A stretch of 61,101 nt of DNA, counting the filler. It is 7 parts of 7 records of this genome, joined end to end, with 100 filler letters (N's around TTAATTAATTAA, not from the genome) between each part and the next. Parts side by side here need not be neighbours in the genome. Positions count along the whole stretch, not along the records: positions 1 to 16,761 come from SRR31156797_63769; 6 more parts are not named here. One strand, given 5' to 3'. Each line of letters begins with the position of its first letter. Positions within the stretch are counted from its first letter, which is position 1. The position numbers and the translations under genes are program-made. Below the pieces are notes generated by a model. That model made no database searches. It was not told where the DNA came from and worked only from the letters and a program-made list of their open reading frames with translations. Below are positions 9,833-20,769 of this stretch, piece after piece.

Positions 9833-10579
9833 TCAGCTTTTTGGGTAGACCCGCTTGCGGCTGTACCTCGCCAGCCAGAACAGGCCGACACCCGAGAGCA
9901 GGATGGTGGAGGGCTCTGGAGTAGGAACAGGCCCAGGCATATTTGCCGTTATCTGTTCAAATGTGCCAATGGTCATGTCGTCAAAACCAAACCAGTCCTC
10001 TCCATTGGTATTGCTGAAGGAGATAGAGGTGAACGCCAGGTTTCGATCCTTTTCATAAAAACCGAAATAAATGACTGAAGCATTCTCAGCGCCTACCGTA
10101 TGGTCAATGTTCAAGGTGCTGGTGGCTCCGTTTGTATAGTTCAGGATTACCTTTCCGCCAAAATCTCCTATGTCGGTTCCGTAAAATCCAAAAGCTGAAA
10201 TTGCCGTGGAAAAGATGATGTTGAAATTTGAATTTGTTTCCCAGTAGTGGTTTCCGGATGTGGCCCACCTCCCGTCACTTGGCTTTCTCCCGTCATTCGG
10301 CTTTCTTTCAATTGCGCCGCTTCCCGAGAGGGTTGCCGTTCCGGCAACGCCGAAGTCAAGATAGATCGGTCCGTAATCGCCAGCTGTAAAGGTTTCAAAA
10401 TCCTCAGTTTTCACACCGGTCATATTTGACATGAAGTCTGCGTTGGCGGCATCCGCATTCACTCTTCCGCCCCCCATGTCTTCTCCAAAAAAGGAGACCG
10501 CTGTTGCATTGGCACTTCCAGCCAATATAATCAACAAAAACAACATGGTTGCCAATCCTGTCAAATATTTATGTTTCAT
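9833..10579 (-). CDS. PEP-CTERM sorting-domain protein
   Basis: Signal peptide MKHKYLTGLATMLFLLIILAGSANA; C-terminal TPEPSTILLSGVGLFWLARYSRKR; GGAGG RBS. Confidence 0.92.
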   Translation of the reverse strand: MKHKYLTGLATMLFLLIILAGSANATAVSFFGEDMGGGRVNADAANADFMSNMTGVKTEDFETFTAGDYGPIYLDFGVAGTATLSGSGAIERKPNDGRKPSDGRWATSGNHYWETNSNFNIIFSTAISAFGFYGTDIGDFGGKVILNYTNGATSTLNIDHTVGAENASVIYFGFYEKDRNLAFTSISFSNTNGEDWFGFDDMTIGTFEQITANMPGPVPTPEPSTILLSGVGLFWLARYSRKRVYPKS

Positions 10580-10640
10580 TTTTTTTCCTCCCGAAAATAA
10601 ATACATTGCATTTACATGCCGTTCTCTTTCACACAACCTG

Positions 10641-10656
10641 AGCAATTATCGTGCCG
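10641..10656 (-). promoter_or_regulatory. sigma54 (-24/-12) promoter of the PEP-CTERM gene
   Basis: Minus strand reads CGGCACGATAATTGCT, matching YGGCACG-N4-TTGCW. Confidence 0.8.
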
Positions 10657-10819
10657 CTCAGGGTAATTGTTTTTGTGCCACCAAGCCGTTCAATGGCGGA
10701 TTCCCGGAGAGATTAAAGCATGTTTACAAACGGTGTCGCCTATATTACTATTTCTTCAATTCAGGCATCTTCGATGCTGTAACCAGATAACCTTTTGCCG
10801 GATCTGGAAGAGAGAGGAT

Positions 10820-11470
10820 ATGGGCCGGAGACCGCGATCCAAAGAAGAAATTGAAATCATCAGGAACAAGATACTGGAACATGCATTGACCATGATCGTC
10901 GACCATGGCTATGAAGGGTTCAGTATCCGGAAACTGGGTCCCCACGTGGGCATCGCCCCTAAAACGGTCTATAACTATTTCAGGAACAAGGATGAGCTCT
11001 ATCTCCACGTGCTGACCAGGGGATTTGAAATTCTGCACGAGGAATTATGCGGGAGTGCCGATCCATTGGCCGACCCTTTTGAGAAACTGTCGGCCCTGGC
11101 CCTGGCATATGTTCGGTTTGGTATTGAAAAACCCTACTATTACGACATCATGTTCACCCGCTTTGTACCGAAGTATAATGATTTTGTCGGTAAACCACAG
11201 GAACCCATCGCCTTACATGAATTACAGACCGCCTTGAAACCCTTTGATTTCGTTGTCCGGGTGATGGAGGAAATAGCCTCCGTTCATGGTGTTGCCCATA
11301 GGAGTGATGCCCGTACGGCCGTTATTCAGTTGATGGTGGGGCTCCATGGCATTGTCTCCTTGAAAAACAATTCCATCCTCGGTTATGTTTCCGGTGATCC
11401 GGATAATTTGATCGATATATTGCTGGCAAACATCCTTGCCCCTTTCAATCCGGGGGCCAAATCGTCTTGA
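10820..11470 (+). CDS. TetR/AcrR-family transcriptional regulator
   Basis: GYEGFSIRKLG..VGIAPKTVYNYF.NKDEL HTH. ATG at 10820 follows a GAGG RBS. Confidence 0.92.
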   Translation: MGRRPRSKEEIEIIRNKILEHALTMIVDHGYEGFSIRKLGPHVGIAPKTVYNYFRNKDELYLHVLTRGFEILHEELCGSADPLADPFEKLSALALAYVRFGIEKPYYYDIMFTRFVPKYNDFVGKPQEPIALHELQTALKPFDFVVRVMEEIASVHGVAHRSDARTAVIQLMVGLHGIVSLKNNSILGYVSGDPDNLIDILLANILAPFNPGAKSS

Positions 11471-11528
11471 TCCCGGACCGGGCTGTCAGCCGTCAGTCTT
11501 TGGGAGGGACCGTTCGTATAAAAAATAC

Positions 11529-11587
11529 TTGACAATAAATGTAACACTGTTAGCGTTATGATAAAAGTAACAGCGTTACATTTATTG
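11529..11587 (+). promoter_or_regulatory. Promoter with two palindromic operators upstream of the SCP2-GRE operon
   Basis: TTGACA at 11529 and extended -10 TGtTAGCGT at 11548-11556. Palindromes GTAACACTGTTAG (11541-11553) and GTAACAGCGTTAC (11567-11579). Confidence 0.7.
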
Positions 11588-11682
11588 AGTCCGTTAATTT
11601 CCGGGTAGATCCGTTTCCATGGGACGATCCCGGTTAACCAGTGCCTGATACCGCGAATAATTGAGGAAAAGGGAGGGGATGG

Positions 11683-12048
11683 ATGAGATTCAGTCTGCTG
11701 TTGTTTATTCTTCACTTAAAGTTGACCCGGGCCGCCAGAATCAATGTTTCTTTTAAAAAGTTCATCAAGGATAAGTGCCTTAAATTCGGCATCAAGACCG
11801 CTGACGGTTCCAGGGGACGCCTTTTTGTTTTTAACCAGGGCGTCGTTTCCTCCCGCGCCTGCAATCCTGAAGCCCCGGATTCCGCAATGGTCTGGCTGGA
11901 TGCCCATACCGGCTTCCAGGTAATGTCATCGGGCAACGACGAGGCCGCCGTTGCCGCGCTCACCGAAAGAAAGCTCCTGGTGGAGGGGGATTTCAAGGAG
12001 TTCATGTGGTTTTCCAGGGCGCTGGACATAATGATGGGAAAAGCATAA
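11683..12048 (+). CDS. Small SCP2 (sterol carrier protein 2)-like protein
   Basis: 121 aa with strong RBS. The pattern (helix, FxIxT..G..R.F.F..G.V.S, PD..M, AL..RKL.VEGD...MWF) fits the SCP2-like fold; recognised by eye only. Confidence 0.6.
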   Translation: MRFSLLLFILHLKLTRAARINVSFKKFIKDKCLKFGIKTADGSRGRLFVFNQGVVSSRACNPEAPDSAMVWLDAHTGFQVMSSGNDEAAVAALTERKLLVEGDFKEFMWFSRALDIMMGKA

Positions 12049-12064
12049 TCAGGGGAGGTGTCAA

Positions 12065-14611
12065 ATGGGAGTGGTTGCTGAGATTGAGATCCAGGCAAAG
12101 AATCGCAAGCCCTGCGGGATTGTGCCCTTTGATAAGGATTGGGGAACGGGGTACAATGCCTGGGAAGAGAATCCTTCGCCTTTTGCCAGGGTCAACCGGT
12201 TAAAGAAGTTTGTGGACGATCATCCATTCACCGTTGACCATGAACGGGCATGCCTGGTGACCGAAGCCTATAAGAAACATTCGGACAAACCGCAGATAAT
12301 CCGGTGTGCAAAGGCCCTGGCCCATGTGCTGGAAAATTTCACCATTCATATCCATCGCGACGAGCTGATCGTCGGCGAGATGGGGGCTCCGTTGAAATCC
12401 GCTCCCATCTTCCCGGAATTTTCCATGGACTGGATCATGGATGAAATGAAAAATCATCCATGGCGAAAACGCCTCCATGACAGGTATACGATTTCAAAGA
12501 AATCCGAAAAACGGTTAAGGGGGATCGCCGGATTCTGGAAAGGAAAGACGGTTGAAGAGACCGCCATTGCCAGGATGTCCGAAGATGAGTTAAAAGGCAC
12601 CAACCTGGGACGGGGGGTTTATCTCTTGAACCTCTATCTGTCCGGCGGCGTCGGCCATACCCAGGCCAATTACGAGAAACTCTTTGCCAACGGTTTTGGC
12701 GGACTCAGGAAAGAGGTTCGTCAAACAATGCTGTCCCTGGATCCCACCCTTTCGGAAAATCTCAAAAAGCGGGAGTTTTATCAGGCGGAACTGATCGCCC
12801 TTGACGCATCAACGGCGTTTTTAAAACGCTATTCCGCCCTGGCCGGGGAATTGAAAAAAAAGGAGAAAGACCCGGAGTGGAAAAAGGAGCTTTCAAGGAT
12901 CGAAGCAACCTGTGACTGGGTGGCTGAAAATCCTCCCAGGACCTTCCGGGAAGCGTTGCAGCTCTGTTTTATCGCAACCACTATTATCCTGATCGAATCC
13001 AACGGCCATTCCGTGTCCTACGGCCGGTTTGACCAATATATGTATCCCTTTTATGAAAACGACATTGAATCGGGCATCGAAACCAAAGAATCGATCCAGG
13101 AGCTGCTTGAAATCGGTCTTTTCATCAAGGATCTCTGGTGGACGAAGCTGAGGGACCGCCTCACCGTCATTGCCAATTCCGGAAGGGGCATGGGCGGGGA
13201 CTCCCTCACCGTGGGCGGCGTGGATACTGGGGGGAATGACGCCACAAACGATCTGAGTCATATGATCCTCGATGCCCAGGTGCATACCCGATCCGGGGTG
13301 CCCTGGGTGGCCGTCCGCCTCCATGAAAACAGCCCCAGGGAGTTCAAGGTAAAAGCCTTCAACGTTATCCGGGTGGGAACCGGGCAACCCAAGCTCTACA
13401 ATGATCAGGCTGCGATACCCGCCATGATCCGGGGGGGCAGAACCAAAGAGGATGCTTATAACTACCATATCGTGGGCTGCGTTGAGATGGATGCCGGCGG
13501 GAAAGAGTACGGATGGCACGACTCCGCCTATTTCAGCATTGCCAAAATCCTTGAACTGGCCGTCAATGACGGTCGATGCATGGGATGCGGGGCCCATTGT
13601 CCCCGGTGGGACCGGTGCGGGGGCGCCGGAAAGCGGTTGGGGCCTCAAACCGGAAGCCTGGCCGGGTTTACCTCCTTTGACCAGGTCAAACAATCCTATG
13701 ACCGTCAGATGAAGTACTGGTGTGACCGGATGATCGCGGGAACGGAAATCATGGATCTCACCCACCAGGAACTCAAGCCTCTCCCGTTTCTTTCAACCTT
13801 GATGGATGACTGTACCCGGCGGGGAATCGATGTCTCTGCCGGCGGCGCTGTTTACAATTTCACCGGCCCCCAGGCCGTGGGGGTGGGCACCGTGGCCGAC
13901 GGGCTTTCCACCATCAGGCAGCTTGTCTTTGACGAGAAACGGGTGACAGGAAAAGAACTGCTTGACGCTTGTGAGAAAAACTGGGTGGGATATGATCCCC
14001 TGTACGCCCTTGTCAATGGCCGTAAAGTTCATCACTACGGCAATGATGACGATTATGCCGACGACCTGGCCCGCTTCGGGGCCGACACCTATTGCAAGCA
14101 TATTGAGAACCGGCCCAACGCCCGTGGCGGCCATTACCTGCCCGGTGTATATTCGGTTTCGGCCAATGTCGGCCTTGGATTGATCCAGTGGGCATCGGTG
14201 GACGGCAGAAAGGCCCTGGAGCCTGTTTCCGATTGCCTGGGGCCCGTGCACACCCAGGCCGGCTCCCATGACGTCAAAGGGCCCACCGCCATTGCGAAAT
14301 CCGCATCCAAGCTGGACCATGTCCGCGCAACCAACGGCACCCTGCTCAACTGGAAGTTCACCCCTTCCTGCGTTTCCGGGGAAACAGGGCGGGACAACCT
14401 GATTTCACTGATCGACGTCTACTTTGACCGGAAGGGGATGCACAGCCAGTTCAACATTGTCGGCAAGGAAACCCTGGAGGCCGCCCTGGCGGATCCGGAT
14501 GCCTACAAAGATCTGATGGTCCGGGTGGCAGGGTACAGCGCTTACTTCGTCGAGCTGAGCAAGCCCCTGCAGTATGACATCCTGTCCAGAACCGAGCTCT
14601 CCTTTGATTGA
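12065..14611 (+). CDS. Glycyl-radical enzyme, glycerol/propanediol dehydratase-like subgroup, substrate unknown
   Basis: Gly loop LMVRVAGYS (G823), single-Cys loop VGCVE (C472/E474), plus GGVGH, ESNGHS, GRFDQY and GWHDSAYF. Confidence 0.93.
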   Translation: MGVVAEIEIQAKNRKPCGIVPFDKDWGTGYNAWEENPSPFARVNRLKKFVDDHPFTVDHERACLVTEAYKKHSDKPQIIRCAKALAHVLENFTIHIHRDELIVGEMGAPLKSAPIFPEFSMDWIMDEMKNHPWRKRLHDRYTISKKSEKRLRGIAGFWKGKTVEETAIARMSEDELKGTNLGRGVYLLNLYLSGGVGHTQANYEKLFANGFGGLRKEVRQTMLSLDPTLSENLKKREFYQAELIALDASTAFLKRYSALAGELKKKEKDPEWKKELSRIEATCDWVAENPPRTFREALQLCFIATTIILIESNGHSVSYGRFDQYMYPFYENDIESGIETKESIQELLEIGLFIKDLWWTKLRDRLTVIANSGRGMGGDSLTVGGVDTGGNDATNDLSHMILDAQVHTRSGVPWVAVRLHENSPREFKVKAFNVIRVGTGQPKLYNDQAAIPAMIRGGRTKEDAYNYHIVGCVEMDAGGKEYGWHDSAYFSIAKILELAVNDGRCMGCGAHCPRWDRCGGAGKRLGPQTGSLAGFTSFDQVKQSYDRQMKYWCDRMIAGTEIMDLTHQELKPLPFLSTLMDDCTRRGIDVSAGGAVYNFTGPQAVGVGTVADGLSTIRQLVFDEKRVTGKELLDACEKNWVGYDPLYALVNGRKVHHYGNDDDYADDLARFGADTYCKHIENRPNARGGHYLPGVYSVSANVGLGLIQWASVDGRKALEPVSDCLGPVHTQAGSHDVKGPTAIAKSASKLDHVRATNGTLLNWKFTPSCVSGETGRDNLISLIDVYFDRKGMHSQFNIVGKETLEAALADPDAYKDLMVRVAGYSAYFVELSKPLQYDILSRTELSFD

Positions 14612-15582
14612 TGATGACAGACGACACGCTAAACGGTATCGTATTCAATATCCAGCACTTCACCGTCCATGACGGCCCTGGCATCCGTACCGAGATATTT
14701 CTCAAAGGCTGTCCCTTGCAATGCAAATGGTGCAGCAATCCCGAGAGCCTGAAACTCAAACAGGAGGTCGGGGTCCATGGATCACGCTGCATCGGTGTCG
14801 ACAAATGCGGCTATTGTCTCAAAGCCTGTCCCGAATGCGACCGGGGCGTTTTTTTCCTGAATGAAAACCGGGTGGTGGCCATTGACCGAAACCGTTGCAC
14901 CGATTGCCTGAAATGCGCTGAAGCGTGTCCGGCAGACGCCCTTACCACCTGGGGCAATACCCTGTCGGTCAAGGAGGTTATGGCGGAGGTGATGGCGGAT
15001 CTGGAATTCTACGAAAAATCAAACGGCGGCGTAACCATCTCCGGCGGCGATCCCCTCATTCAATGGCCCTTCGCCCTGGCGATCTTAAAGGCGTGCAAGG
15101 AGCAGAATATCCATACCTGTCTGGAGACGGAACTCCATTGCAAAAGCTCCCTGCTGGAGAAACTCTATCCCCATACGGACCTGGTCATCACCGACATCAA
15201 GCACATGGACGGCGGGCGCCACAAAGCGTATACCGGTGTCGGCAACGCCAGGATTCTCGCCAATATCATCAAAACGGTTGACATGGATATGCCCCTGGTG
15301 ATCCGAATCCCGGTGGTCCCCGGCCATAACAACGGTGAAGAGAACATCAGGGCAACAGCTGAGTTTATCTTGAACAAACTGCATAATAAGGTAAAACAGG
15401 TTCAGCTGCTGCCCTACCGTCCCCTGGGAATAGAAAAATACCAGTCCCTGTCCATGGAATACCCCATGGCGAATTGTTCATCCCATGACCCCGGTACCCG
15501 TGAGAAGGAAACTTTAAACCTTGTGTCAATACTGTACTCTTACGGTATCCCGGCGGTGGCCGGTACAAATTCAAAGTATTAA
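14611..15582 (+). CDS. Glycyl-radical enzyme activating enzyme (radical SAM with ferredoxin insert)
   Basis: HDGPGIRT..FLKGCPLQCKWCSNPE, two extra Fe-S motifs and GGVTISGGDP. The start overlaps the GRE stop (TGATG). Confidence 0.95.
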   Translation: MMTDDTLNGIVFNIQHFTVHDGPGIRTEIFLKGCPLQCKWCSNPESLKLKQEVGVHGSRCIGVDKCGYCLKACPECDRGVFFLNENRVVAIDRNRCTDCLKCAEACPADALTTWGNTLSVKEVMAEVMADLEFYEKSNGGVTISGGDPLIQWPFALAILKACKEQNIHTCLETELHCKSSLLEKLYPHTDLVITDIKHMDGGRHKAYTGVGNARILANIIKTVDMDMPLVIRIPVVPGHNNGEENIRATAEFILNKLHNKVKQVQLLPYRPLGIEKYQSLSMEYPMANCSSHDPGTREKETLNLVSILYSYGIPAVAGTNSKY

Positions 15583-16761: not shown

Positions 16762-16861
16762 NNNNNNNNNNNNNNNNNNNNNNNNNNNNNNNNNNNNNNN
16801 NNNNNTTAATTAATTAANNNNNNNNNNNNNNNNNNNNNNNNNNNNNNNNNNNNNNNNNNNN
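16762..16861. other. Artificial contig linker
   Basis: N-run + TTAATTAATTAA (stops in all six frames) + N-run. Confidence 0.99.
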
Positions 16862-18297
16862 ATTTTATTGAGCCATACAGAGAATGTGAAATCTCCCGTA
16901 AGATCAAGAGAGTCACTGTCCTGAACTTCGACATAGCTTGCACCGTCAAAGCTGGCAGCAGCACTTCCTACTACACCGGTGCTGAAAGCCATATTTCCCT
17001 GTGAAGTTCCATGATTATTATTGCCGGAATAATCCCTTACATCATTATCAAAAGGATAGTAGGCAACAAGCCCCCTGGTTGGGATGGATGTCGAACCCGG
17101 AGTGGAAGCAGGAGTTGAGCCAGATGTTGAGGTCGGAGTCGATGATGCGGTACCCGTACGAATAGAATTAATCTCGCTTTGCGTAAGGGCGGAATTATAG
17201 ATCCTCACCTCATCAATGACACCATCAAAATTGCCCCCGTACGAAGGATTGGAACCAATATGGGTGTAGTCCCAGCCACCGCTAAGTACACCTTTTTTAG
17301 TGTACATCTCATCATTTACATACAAGGTTACGGTTTCAGCATCCTGATCATAAACCGCTGCTATAAAGGTCCATTCTCCGATTGTGACAGGATGGAATCC
17401 CAGAACACCACCTGAACCGCTAAATGCAGACCACCCAAGCCCTCCGCCACGGTTATCGATGGCTATGGTTCTATCATAGCCCACATTATCATGTGAAATA
17501 ACGGTTCTCGATTCAATATCAGACTTAACCCAGGCAACTATGGTTACTTGTGGCAGAACATCCGGATTGATGTTGACTGGTGAACGTACATAGTCATCCG
17601 TTCCATCAAAACTCAATGCCTGACCCTTTGCACCGGAAACAAATGTAGCACCATTGTTGGTACCATGGTTGTTATTGCCGGAATAATCCCTGGCATCACC
17701 ATCAAAAGGATAGTAGGCAATAAGTCCTTTCTCTGAAATCTGTGTTGGAGTCGGGCTTGCTTGTGCTGGTGCCACTAGACCGAAGAAATAAATGGTTACA
17801 TGATCACTACCGCCTGGACCATCGACCCCCATATTCTCCACCCTTATAGTGTGAACATCTTTTTCCAGACCGGATATTTCCAGATACTTGATAAACGCAT
17901 CTCCTGCAAGATGGTTCCCATAAGTATCCCCGGTCCATACCTCTTCACCATCAACAAGAACACGTGCCCAGCCATCATTGCTATCACCCCATAGCTGAAC
18001 ACCTACTGCATTCGTTTCAACAGTTGTCTTTGCTTCAACCCAGTTACCCTGCTCCATCAATGCAATCACATGGTTATACCGCCAGATATTACCACCTGCA
18101 GTTATCTGGAACTCAGATGGTGGAGTCACATAAGCAGTGTTTGCAAAGGCTATAACATCGGGCGGAGATGCAAACTCAGCGGCGTTTCCATCATACAATA
18201 CAGTACTCACTTCTGCAGAAGCAACTGCTACTGAAAAAGTGAAAAATATTAAACAAACAAAAAGAACATACTGTAAGCTCTTCGATTTGCTATACAT
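16862..18297 (-). CDS. Secreted/surface protein with tandem LamG-like (concanavalin) domains, C-terminally truncated
   Basis: Signal peptide; repeated GL(I/V)AYYPFD..RDYSGNNNHGT...FDG; F.G.IDEVRIYN.AL; Ser/Thr/Pro linkers. Confidence 0.85.
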
Positions 18298-18451
18298 ACG
18301 ACACCCCCATTTGTTCCCCACGAACAAATCAGTTTATAATAGTATATCTGAATCTAATCTTAGTTATAAATTACCCCGTACATTTGAAGAAAAAGGATAT
18401 GAAGCTACCTAATATTATACCTGTTTGCAGACTTGAACCGCGAAATAATAC

Positions 18452-18793
18452 CTAAAGTGACTTTAAAGGAATAATATAAGGCACACCTTCCTCCTCTTTG
18501 ACCAGAGCTTCAACACCATAGTGATCCCTTATGTTAGCCTCACAAAGTACTGATAAAGGACTGCCTGCAGCAACAATCCGTCCATTTGACATCATCAAGA
18601 GTCTTTGGGAATAGCGGGCTGCGATATTAAGATCATGGATAGCCATTATAACTGAGATACCCAGATCCTGAACAAGACCGCCCAGTATTTCCATCAGGCC
18701 AATCTGGTGTTTGATATCAAGACTGCTTGTGGGCTCATCCAGCAGCAGTATATTGGTTTCCTGGGCAATTCCCTGTCCATTCAAAACCTTCAT
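18452..18793 (-). pseudogene. 5'-truncated iron-siderophore/cobalamin ABC ATPase remnant
   Basis: Retains LLLDEPTSSLD..HQ and HDLN.A but lacks Walker A and the ABC signature; abuts the photolyase stop. Confidence 0.75.
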
Positions 18794-20184
18794 TCCACTG
18801 ATTTAAACATCATCAAAGCCACATTGCGTTCCTTTGAATGATCAAGCACAGGACGTGGATAATCGACTTCCCGAAGCTGTTGTCCCTTTTCAAGAGAATG
18901 AATGTCTTTTGGGTCGATATCGGCAAGTTCAGGAATCCACTTTTTTATGTACAGGCATTCAGGATCAAACTTTTTCTGTTGTGTCCATGGATTAAAAATA
19001 CGGAAATACGGCTGTGAATCCGCCCCTGTTGATGCTGCCCACTGCCAGTTACCATTGTTTACACATGGATCATAATCAACGAGTTTGCTGGCAAAATAAC
19101 GTTCACCCCATTTCCAGTCAATGTGCATGTCCTTCACAAGGAAGGATGCAACTATCATACGCACACGATTGTGCATGCAACCAGTGGTGTTCAATTCCCT
19201 CATTCCTGCATCAACAATTGGAAAACCGATCCGTCCTGAACACCATGCTTCAAAAAGACCCTTGTCGTTCATCCATGAAAGGTTGTCAAATTTTTTCCTG
19301 AAAGCATGCCCGAATACATCAGGAAAAGCAACAGCAATGTTGGTGAAGAAATCTCTCCAGAACAATTCGTTTATCAATGTGTGCCCTGTGCCTAACTCGT
19401 CCTTTACATAATGATAAAACTCCCGTATGGAGACTGTACCCAGTTTGTTATGGGCGGAAAGTCCTGTGGTTCCCTTAATTGATGGGTAATCGCGTTCATT
19501 GTCATAGTTCACAAAACTACCAATATTCTGCAGGATCGATAGAGCATGAGTTCTACCACCTTTTGCGAAAAGATGATCGTTTCTTTCTGATGGCCAGATG
19601 TCGGAAATATTATCCAGTTCAATACCTGTAGCGAGACTTATATTGGCTGAACTGAATCTATCAACGCTCTGCATTTCCGGCAGTGGTACCTCCACCTTTG
19701 AAGCCTTCCTGAAGAACTGGGAGAATACTTTGTAAGGCTTTCCTTCATTGGTCAGCACAGTTCCCGGCTCATGAAGGAGTGCATCATGATAGCTGAATAC
19801 TTCGATACCAGCATCATCACATGCACTTTCTATTGCCTCATCTCGTTTCTTGCTGAAAGGCGTATAGTCCCTGTTGAAGAAGATGGTATCAACCCCATGC
19901 TTCCGGGCAAGTTCCTTTATGATATCTTCAGGCAGACCGGAAAAAAGAAACAGCTCACCATCCCTTGATTGCAATTGTTCTTTCAGGTCTGTAAGGGATT
20001 CCAGCAGGAACTGAAAAGCATTGTTGTTGAAATATTTTCGTTCCCTGTCTGCAAGCCTTGGGTCGAAGATGAAACATGGAATTACCTCGTCGGATAGCTC
20101 CAGCGCCCTGTTCAGGGCTGTGTTGTCATCAAGACGAAGATCACGCCTGAATATGAACAAAGATAACCTGAATTTCTTTGGCAC
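18790..20184 (-). CDS. phr: Deoxyribodipyrimidine photolyase (class I/III-like CPD photolyase/cryptochrome family)
   Basis: FRRDLRLDDN.AL, ELFWRDF, VDAGMREL..TG.MHNRVRMIVASFL, D.D...NNGNWQW and RIFNP motifs. Confidence 0.93.
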   Translation of the reverse strand: MPKKFRLSLFIFRRDLRLDDNTALNRALELSDEVIPCFIFDPRLADRERKYFNNNAFQFLLESLTDLKEQLQSRDGELFLFSGLPEDIIKELARKHGVDTIFFNRDYTPFSKKRDEAIESACDDAGIEVFSYHDALLHEPGTVLTNEGKPYKVFSQFFRKASKVEVPLPEMQSVDRFSSANISLATGIELDNISDIWPSERNDHLFAKGGRTHALSILQNIGSFVNYDNERDYPSIKGTTGLSAHNKLGTVSIREFYHYVKDELGTGHTLINELFWRDFFTNIAVAFPDVFGHAFRKKFDNLSWMNDKGLFEAWCSGRIGFPIVDAGMRELNTTGCMHNRVRMIVASFLVKDMHIDWKWGERYFASKLVDYDPCVNNGNWQWAASTGADSQPYFRIFNPWTQQKKFDPECLYIKKWIPELADIDPKDIHSLEKGQQLREVDYPRPVLDHSKERNVALMMFKSVE

Positions 20185-20769
20185 TCATTCCACCTCGATG
20201 GCAATCTCATTACGCATAAGAGTAGGCGGCATCCATGGTGGATCATAGCGCATCAGGAAATAGTCACCTTTTACGGAAATATTACCGGCAGCAAGTCTAT
20301 TATCAATAAGAAGACGATGCTTTTCAATTGAATCATCATTTGCATAGCCTGAAAATCCTATAACTGCCAGCTTTCTGGAAGGAATCGTATGAATTGATAT
20401 TCCGGAATCATCAGGTTCCGGGGCATTGTCCTGGTCATAAGCAGCAGGAAGTACAAAGGACATATTGACATAAGCACCTTCCTCCGAAGAGAGAACAGGA
20501 GCAGTCATATCAATTTTTTCATCCTTAGCGTCGCCTCCATAAGTATAAGACGCGAGCAAAGAGAATGCATCGCCGGAATCTTTTGCCACCGTCGAGATTA
20601 CGGTCATTTCACCATATTGCCTGATCTCAACGTTGTCATCTAACTCGTCAAGAACCTCATATGCAATCTCTTCCGTTGTCATTGATACATACACCCCCGC
20701 AAAGAACCAGGAACCAGCCGTAACGGCTGCCACTGTCAATAAAGCGAAGATAACCCCTGCTTTATCCAT
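20185..20769 (-). CDS. SOUL-family heme-binding protein with N-terminal membrane anchor
   Basis: EIRQY, AF..LA.Y..G, KIDMTAPV, MSFVLP, FSG and YDPPW....MRNEI motifs. Confidence 0.88.
   Translation of the reverse strand: MDKAGVIFALLTVAAVTAGSWFFAGVYVSMTTEEIAYEVLDELDDNVEIRQYGEMTVISTVAKDSGDAFSLLASYTYGGDAKDEKIDMTAPVLSSEEGAYVNMSFVLPAAYDQDNAPEPDDSGISIHTIPSRKLAVIGFSGYANDDSIEKHRLLIDNRLAAGNISVKGDYFLMRYDPPWMPPTLMRNEIAIEVE

Follow-up and report, generated by a model that had tools for sequence, protein, structure and literature searches.

An optional four-cysteine loop, a predicted metal knuckle, in the catalytic chain of HpfG-related glycyl radical enzymes

We analysed the catalytic subunit of a glycyl radical enzyme (GRE) encoded in a stretch of DNA of 61,101 nucleotides, filler included, which was joined from seven parts and is called the window here. 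A short loop downstream of its catalytic cysteine carries four further cysteines. As judged from comparison with homologues, this loop is a real, conserved Cys4 module, undescribed in the literature searched and optional in a clade of GREs related to HpfG, the (2S)-dihydroxypropanesulfonate (DHPS) dehydratase. The four cysteines very probably bind a metal. At slightly better than even odds, we read the loop as an optional structural knuckle around a single ion, most likely one Zn2+ (or Fe2+ instead), on a hairpin that is probably surface-exposed, in a GRE of dehydratase type that is unremarkable in other respects. The features at issue are the following.

12065-14611, plus strand: GRE catalytic subunit of 848 amino acids, C-O eliminase type, HpfG-related (Pfam PFL-like and Gly_radical).
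13478-13486, plus strand: catalytic CxE motif, C472 and E474, invariant in the alignment (motif definition in PMC13450708, section 5.6.1).
13577-13618, plus strand: motif C505-x2-C508-x3-C512-x5-C518, a predicted metal knuckle (translated open reading frame, ORF, and homologue alignment).
13592-13630 (approximate), plus strand: insertion of about 13 residues missing from loop-less orthologues (orthologue alignments, in which the gap at its edges is ambiguous by a few residues).
14531-14533, plus strand: G823, the glycyl radical site in RVAGY (alignment).

A first-pass annotation of the window had reported the catalytic C472 followed by C505, C508, C512 and C518. This numbering was correct; C472 lies in GCVE, and the codons of the four loop cysteines span exactly 13577-13618. 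The same annotation spoke of a four-cysteine insertion, of which the cysteines are real but the inserted stretch is only about 13 residues long. The loop sits on a short hairpin common to other GREs, which at the same place read N-G-x-(D/C/S)-x-x-(T/S)-G-x-Q-x-G. The ordinary D/S-x-x-T/S-G turn of this hairpin is replaced by C505-x-x-C508-G509, so that both turn positions are taken by C505 and C508, and the extra loop contributes C512 and C518. When the turn was surveyed in the 150 best representatives at 50% identity, 24 of the 87 that could be parsed had a cysteine at the C505 position, and five of these 24 carried the full motif. CxxCG without the insertion was found in two distant GREs of the same survey, P0153 and P0270. 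Since bare CxxCG turns and first-cysteine cases occur without the full motif, the knuckle looks as if it was built stepwise on a pre-existing turn. One of the 24, P0133, has a different Cys/His-rich insertion at the same site, and P0323 has an aberrant four-cysteine loop at the same hairpin; with these two patterns and those of P0153 and P0270, the hairpin looks like a hotspot for the gain of metal ligands.

The motif is no chance feature: all four cysteines were present in each of the 120 top homologues (62-95% identity), in a search whose region contained the loop and was thus biased toward loop-bearing matches. A second search, with the homologue P0107 as query and a region without the loop, added 75 new proteins. 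The full motif occurred in 67 of them, no loop cysteine in six (one a truncated fragment), the first cysteine only in one and an aberrant cysteine pattern in one. Invariance among homologues, which the first-pass annotation had proposed as a check, was thereby borne out, the four cysteines being gained and lost together. They were also kept in 50 of 50 loop segments at 40-86% identity. The 76 genome loci examined include 39 with the motif, in 49 GRE reading frames altogether and at identities as low as 39%, and a loop profile matched at least 10 of 401 sampled genomes in the phylum of G001 (the centre genome counted).

CxxC and Cx5C are invariant throughout, whereas the Cys2-Cys3 spacer is 3 in 231 of 327 parsed rows (not de-duplicated), 4 in six rows and 7 in four further genomes. 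A variable spacer between two fixed pairs would suit a pair of half-sites that share one ion, and a Zn(Cys)4 knuckle is expected to show four co-conserved cysteines in half-sites of this kind with a CxxCG turn, as the loop does. Other conserved positions over 209 distinct motif strings are R514 (89%), W/Y/H/F at 515 (100%) and G522 (99%), followed by G509 (69%) and P513 (61%). P0423 is identical to P0424 outside the loop and is without two residues including the second cysteine, which is either a sequencing error or a very recent loss.

The distribution of the loop was followed on a 162-row tree rooted on three outgroup GREs, from which the most distant loop-less GREs of an earlier 132-row tree were omitted. 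The loop is found in 138 of the 162 rows, and 14 state changes are needed, 12 of them forced by starred branches. In a clade of 155 rows, those with the loop are basal, so that the simplest reading would be that the loop was gained once or twice and then lost about twelve times. This clade includes several distinct active-site types as well as HpfG.

HpfG itself is polymorphic for the loop. Among the 120 best matches to an HpfG orthologue, searched with a region without the loop, 50 have four cysteines (mostly 839 residues), 67 have none (mostly 824-830 residues) and three are partial or truncated, an all-or-none pattern that fits a metal knuckle. The 126-row HpfG tree needs eight changes, five of them forced. 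In the usual loss 13 residues are deleted and the first two cysteines become Ser and Thr, and almost always the loop comes and goes as one 13-residue unit. The characterised HpfG of Klebsiella oxytoca (A0A318FL05, P0521) has no loop; it shows a clean 13-residue gap against both the window protein, to which it is 48% identical, and the loop-bearing HpfG of Hungatella hathewayi, to which it is 83% identical. Both species are named as DHPS reducers (PMC12890257). As for how the loop-less form spread, patch recombination from the main loop-less HpfG clade left no signal: in each of the two flanking segments, all six isolated loop-less proteins were at least as close to loop-bearing proteins.

Since the characterised K. 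oxytoca enzyme works without it, the loop is, on this comparison, not required for this chemistry, and no functional subfamily is delimited by it. The first-pass annotation had suggested that the loop defines a distinct GRE subfamily. That proposal is not upheld, because many active-site types share the loop and HpfG orthologues of 76-87% identity differ in it. An essential role in radical quenching, also raised there, is unlikely, since the K. oxytoca HpfG functions in its absence.

In an AlphaFold model the loop is ordered, with predicted local confidence (pLDDT) of 95 for residues 501-510 and 91 for residues 511-520 and short helical turns at 515-517 and 519-521; an isolated 66-residue fragment gave the same pattern. 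Atlas features of residues 492-535 lie nearest to NrdD-type clusters (0.82-0.85), a weak lead. Invariant and co-occurring cysteines in a confidently modelled loop all fit a metal site, and to this extent the earlier suggestion of a built-in Zn or [4Fe-4S] site stands; the metal itself we infer. In the mechanism that we propose, the ancestral D/S-x-x-T/S-G turn would have changed to C-x-x-C-G, and the 13-residue loop would have added a second half-site, C-P-R-aromatic-x-x-C. The four thiolates would close around a metal ion, which may stiffen the hairpin and the helix downstream of the catalytic cysteine loop and so confer stability with no part in radical chemistry. The history of the loop would be one or two gains close to the base of the HpfG-related clade, followed by about a dozen losses. 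That the characterised relative HpfG has no loop makes the knuckle likely to be optional.

Several points weigh against a plain single-ion knuckle. The motif also resembles [4Fe-4S] motifs in its CX2CX3C and Cx5C parts, and Zn and Fe-S sites are described as hard to distinguish from sequence (PMC11138216). A bare Zn site leaves the conserved R514 and the aromatic residue at 515 unaccounted for. Weak Pfam matches to Fer4 (three and two of 50 members) slightly outnumber those to a zinc knuckle (one of 50), all being insignificant. The Atlas lead to NrdD-type clusters falls under the tool's threshold of 0.9, with only 51-54 features in common. The trees were built with FastTree with the motif cut out and carry no clade tests. 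Retention of the loop in 138 of 162 rows shows selection of some kind.

Searches for relatives of the loop gave no significant match to a metal site. Against all PDB sequences the motif gave no significant match: among 11 matches at E up to 10, the best was a gamma-crystallin (0.034) and none was a GRE. A Pfam scan of the motif gave no significant metal-site match. With the 66-residue fragment, Foldseek returned only GRE chains, none at E up to 0.001, and VIA-align returned five matches at Z of at least 2, namely four GREs and one spliceosome chain (Z 2.2); null results of these two tools do not show that the fold is new.

A single Zn or Fe ion is, from the motif, slightly favoured over a structural [4Fe-4S] cluster, which would be a built-in counterpart of the clusters on the small subunits of hydroxyphenylacetate decarboxylase (HPAD) and benzylsuccinate synthase (BSS) and which we hold as a tentative alternative. 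In anoxic habitats rich in iron such a cluster would lend the enzyme stability, but under exposure to oxygen it would turn into a liability and be shed. CX2CX3C occurs within the flavoenzyme motif CX2CX3CX11-13C (PMC11574389) and in a Nqo3 motif (title of a reference in PMC5953540), and the endonuclease III motif CX6CX2CX5C ends in Cx5C (PMC11138216). Clusters on GRE small subunits are thought to be structural (PMC13450708, section 4.2). A cluster would also be consistent with the conservation of R514 and of an aromatic residue or His at 515. However, the Cys2-Cys3 spacer of 3, 4 or 7 is unlike the fixed CX2CX3C motifs, and searches with PDB, Pfam, Foldseek and VIA-align gave no Fe-S protein as a significant match in sequence or fold. 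The spacing CX2CX3/4/7CX5C fails the exact flavoenzyme and endonuclease III motifs, which lowers the case for membership in those two groups only and not for Fe-S binding as such. Every facultative anaerobe named among the HpfG carriers (Klebsiella, Citrobacter, Escherichia, Enterobacter, Superficieibacter and Enterococcus) is loop-less; these are two lineages only, though, and several strict anaerobes are also loop-less (Schaedlerella, the Allofournierella cluster, a Clostridium sp. and L040). A more far-reaching form of this idea, which appears unlikely, is that the loop holds the first cluster inside a PFL-like GRE catalytic chain, a compact [4Fe-4S] with a new CX2CX3CX5C ligand set that would tune radical installation or lifetime and play internally the part that HPAD and BSS leave to their Fe-S small subunits.

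It seems rather improbable that the site is redox-active or regulatory, whether through electron transfer with the activase or the glycyl radical (quenching or protection) or as a docking place for the activase or for a small SCP2-like protein encoded upstream. Strong retention over a deep clade would suit such a function; the Zn ribbon of the class III ribonucleotide reductase (RNR) is linked to the glycyl radical domain (PMC4493059, PMC9669993), and for the HPAD small subunit a protective function has been suggested, though not supported by experiment (PMC13450708). Orthologues that share 80-86% identity with loop-bearing ones have nevertheless repeatedly lost the loop, some 300 residues of sequence separate it from the glycyl radical domain, which is not so for the RNR ribbon, and the SCP2-like gene accompanies it at a minority of loci (below). 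Least probable of all is a loop that binds no metal and serves for two disulfides, a thiol redox switch or simple packing. All-or-none loss would also be compatible with paired disulfides, and the best PDB sequence look-alikes are non-metal cysteine-rich stretches, all at chance level. Losses of one pair only are essentially not seen, however, and a cytoplasmic enzyme that operates in a reducing, anoxic milieu is unlikely to hold stable disulfides.

The single-ion knuckle is the reading that we prefer, and we now turn to the enzyme that carries it. Pfam and the predicted fold place the window protein as a PFL-like GRE of the 1,2-eliminase type, with the ten-stranded barrel, the Gly and Cys loops, the CxE motif and an adjacent activase. 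Its AlphaFold2 model (144-row alignment) has a mean pLDDT of 95.4, and Foldseek gave this predicted model a TM-score of 0.91 to glycerol and propanediol dehydratases. On the NCBIfam HpfG model NF048009 it passes the cut-off narrowly, with 1093 bits against 1000; core HpfG proteins score 1640-1740 bits, and paralogues with other active sites also pass. On the tree the window protein lies outside the HpfG orthologue clade, in a separate 14-row clade that is 47-52% identical to core HpfG rows, which are 76-87% identical among themselves. H185, R363 and N678, which lie on active-site strands, are invariant (99-100%) in 122 HpfG rows and may take part in sulfonate binding by HpfG; the window protein has L192, N371 and S699 at these positions, and HpfG R366 is kept as R374. 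The HpfG neighbours hpfD (Fe-dependent alcohol dehydrogenase) and hpfE (TauE) were not found among the 24 window ORFs scanned in 1-30826, and both are present at L077 and L078. We do not assign the enzyme as HpfG and infer a diol dehydratase for another substrate, perhaps a less polar one; it would likely dehydrate a vicinal diol other than DHPS. The 1000-bit cut-off of NF048009 admits the window protein (12065-14611) and proteins at L014, L016 and L028 at 1020-1250 bits with different pocket residues, and the name "DHPS dehydratase" is probably over-applied by this model.

The gene lies in a small cassette with the following members.

10667-11470, plus strand: TetR-family regulator upstream of the cassette (domain scan).
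11683-12048, plus strand: small protein of 121 amino acids, SCP2-like as a lead only (Atlas cluster match).
14608-15582, plus strand: radical-SAM activating enzyme with a ferredoxin-like insert (TIGR02494, above cut-off).

The activase scores 392 bits on the HpfH model, below the cut-off of 500. A TetR gene also lies upstream in L001, L002 and L011. The 121-residue protein has no Pfam match, and its SCP2 label is only a lead, resting on an Atlas match (0.94) to a cluster with 11% PF02036. Of the 39 motif-bearing loci, 13 have a homologue of this ORF directly upstream of the GRE; these are precisely the loci of the 14-row clade to which the window protein belongs. No homologue was found at L079-L082; some loci in this count are cut by contig ends. 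The co-occurrence of the loop with the SCP2-like gene that the first-pass annotation had put forward is therefore ruled out as a general rule, and by this count the 121-residue gene marks the subclade of the window enzyme and not the loop.

The cassette comprises the genes of the small SCP2-like protein, the GRE and the activase, in most cases preceded by a TetR-sized ORF, and occurs at 10667-15582 of the window and at L001-L010, L015, L016 and L020. It is conserved in Thermodesulfobacteriota, Spirochaetota, Actinomycetota and Bacillota; downstream of it no enzymes are conserved. The small protein might act as an accessory subunit or carry the substrate. A Pfam SCP2 protein is encoded upstream of a distant (39%) loop-bearing GRE at L047:351-917; it has no detectable similarity to the 121-residue protein of the window, and the two genes at L047 may be an independent pairing. 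Tandem loop-bearing GRE paralogues with different active-site residues are present at L014, L022, L025, L028 and L030-L035; at the loci whose flanking DNA is covered (L014, L022, L028 and L034), both members of the pair share one activase-sized ORF. Such pairs may be a two-step pathway or heterodimers. L022:3226-7224 (minus strand) encodes a GRE of 1332 amino acids with about 530 extra N-terminal residues without a Pfam match. At L012:5983-8521 and L036:69-2672 the GRE genes are split into two ORFs by a frameshift, a stop or an assembly error. Elsewhere in the window, 18452-20769 (minus strand) holds a SOUL haem-binding gene, a DNA photolyase and a C-terminal ABC ATPase fragment of 113 amino acids that looks truncated, all near the anaerobic GRE operon; the photolyase suggests exposure to light. 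A protein with a PEP-CTERM-like tail (9833-10645, minus strand) and a LamG-domain protein (16810-18327, minus strand) are both probably surface proteins.

The catalytic chains of PFL-like GREs are regarded as free of metal, and a 2026 review calls it enigmatic what iron cofactors do on the accessory subunits of GREs (PMC13450708). The clade that carries the loop is large and mostly uncharacterised, with sulfate reducers, syntrophs and gut Clostridia. If it does have a built-in Cys4 site, expression and purification of its enzymes must change. The HpfG proteins of H. hathewayi and K. oxytoca, 83% identical and different by the loop, provide a natural control. If the site were an in-chain [4Fe-4S] cluster, orthologues with and without it would make the function of iron cofactors in GREs directly testable. 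A loop that enzymes can do without most likely serves stability and nothing else, and the finding is to that extent less surprising.

Among known systems, the nearest characterised enzyme is HpfG (K. oxytoca A0A318FL05; NF048009), which converts (S)-DHPS into 3-sulfopropionaldehyde by dehydration, with 48% identity over 840 columns. It belongs to the same clade and shares the CxE motif and the RGxGG(E/D) strand, and the Cys4 loop is present in 50 of 120 HpfG orthologues; it differs in that the K. oxytoca enzyme is loop-less and in H185/R363/N678 against L192/N371/S699 of the window protein. The closest solved structures are the B12-independent glycerol dehydratase (1R8W) and the 1,2-propanediol dehydratases (5I2G, 9RCO), at about 39% identity and a query TM-score of 0.90-0.91. 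In the alignment, C472, E474 and H198 of the window protein match C433, E435 and H164 of glycerol dehydratase, whereas on the strand that follows the 360s helix the three structures and the window protein differ in their aromatic residues. At the position of the motif, the four closest solved GREs have a short loop without cysteine.

Four-cysteine metal sites are attached to PFL-like GREs in the Fe-S or Fe small subunits of HPAD, BSS and MASS, where their role is given as unresolved and probably structural (PMC13450708, section 4.2). Those sites belong to proteins of their own, HiPIP- or rubredoxin-like, on which solubility or activity depends, whereas the window site is a 14-residue loop in the large chain, and it has no sequence or fold match to these small subunits. 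The 2026 review does not use the word "zinc" and, in the text examined, puts iron cofactors on activases and small subunits only (PMC13450708). Our literature search gave no description of the loop and no match to "CX2CX3CX5C"; supplements were outside its scope, and HpfG alignments of 2020 may show the loop. The first-pass annotation had held that GRE catalytic subunits carry no metal, which is correct for PFL-like GREs in the literature examined but not for NrdD, the class III RNR. NrdD has a cysteine-ligated Zn site, a Zn ribbon, inside its GRE catalytic chain (PMC4493059, PMC9669993), with the motif CxxCx14CxxC or CxxxHx6CxxC placed after the last barrel strand and before the Gly loop. In the window protein the motif instead follows the Cys loop, has another spacing and is optional, and homology is not claimed. 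Because class III RNR is itself a GRE, a metal site in the large chain of such an enzyme has a precedent, at another position.

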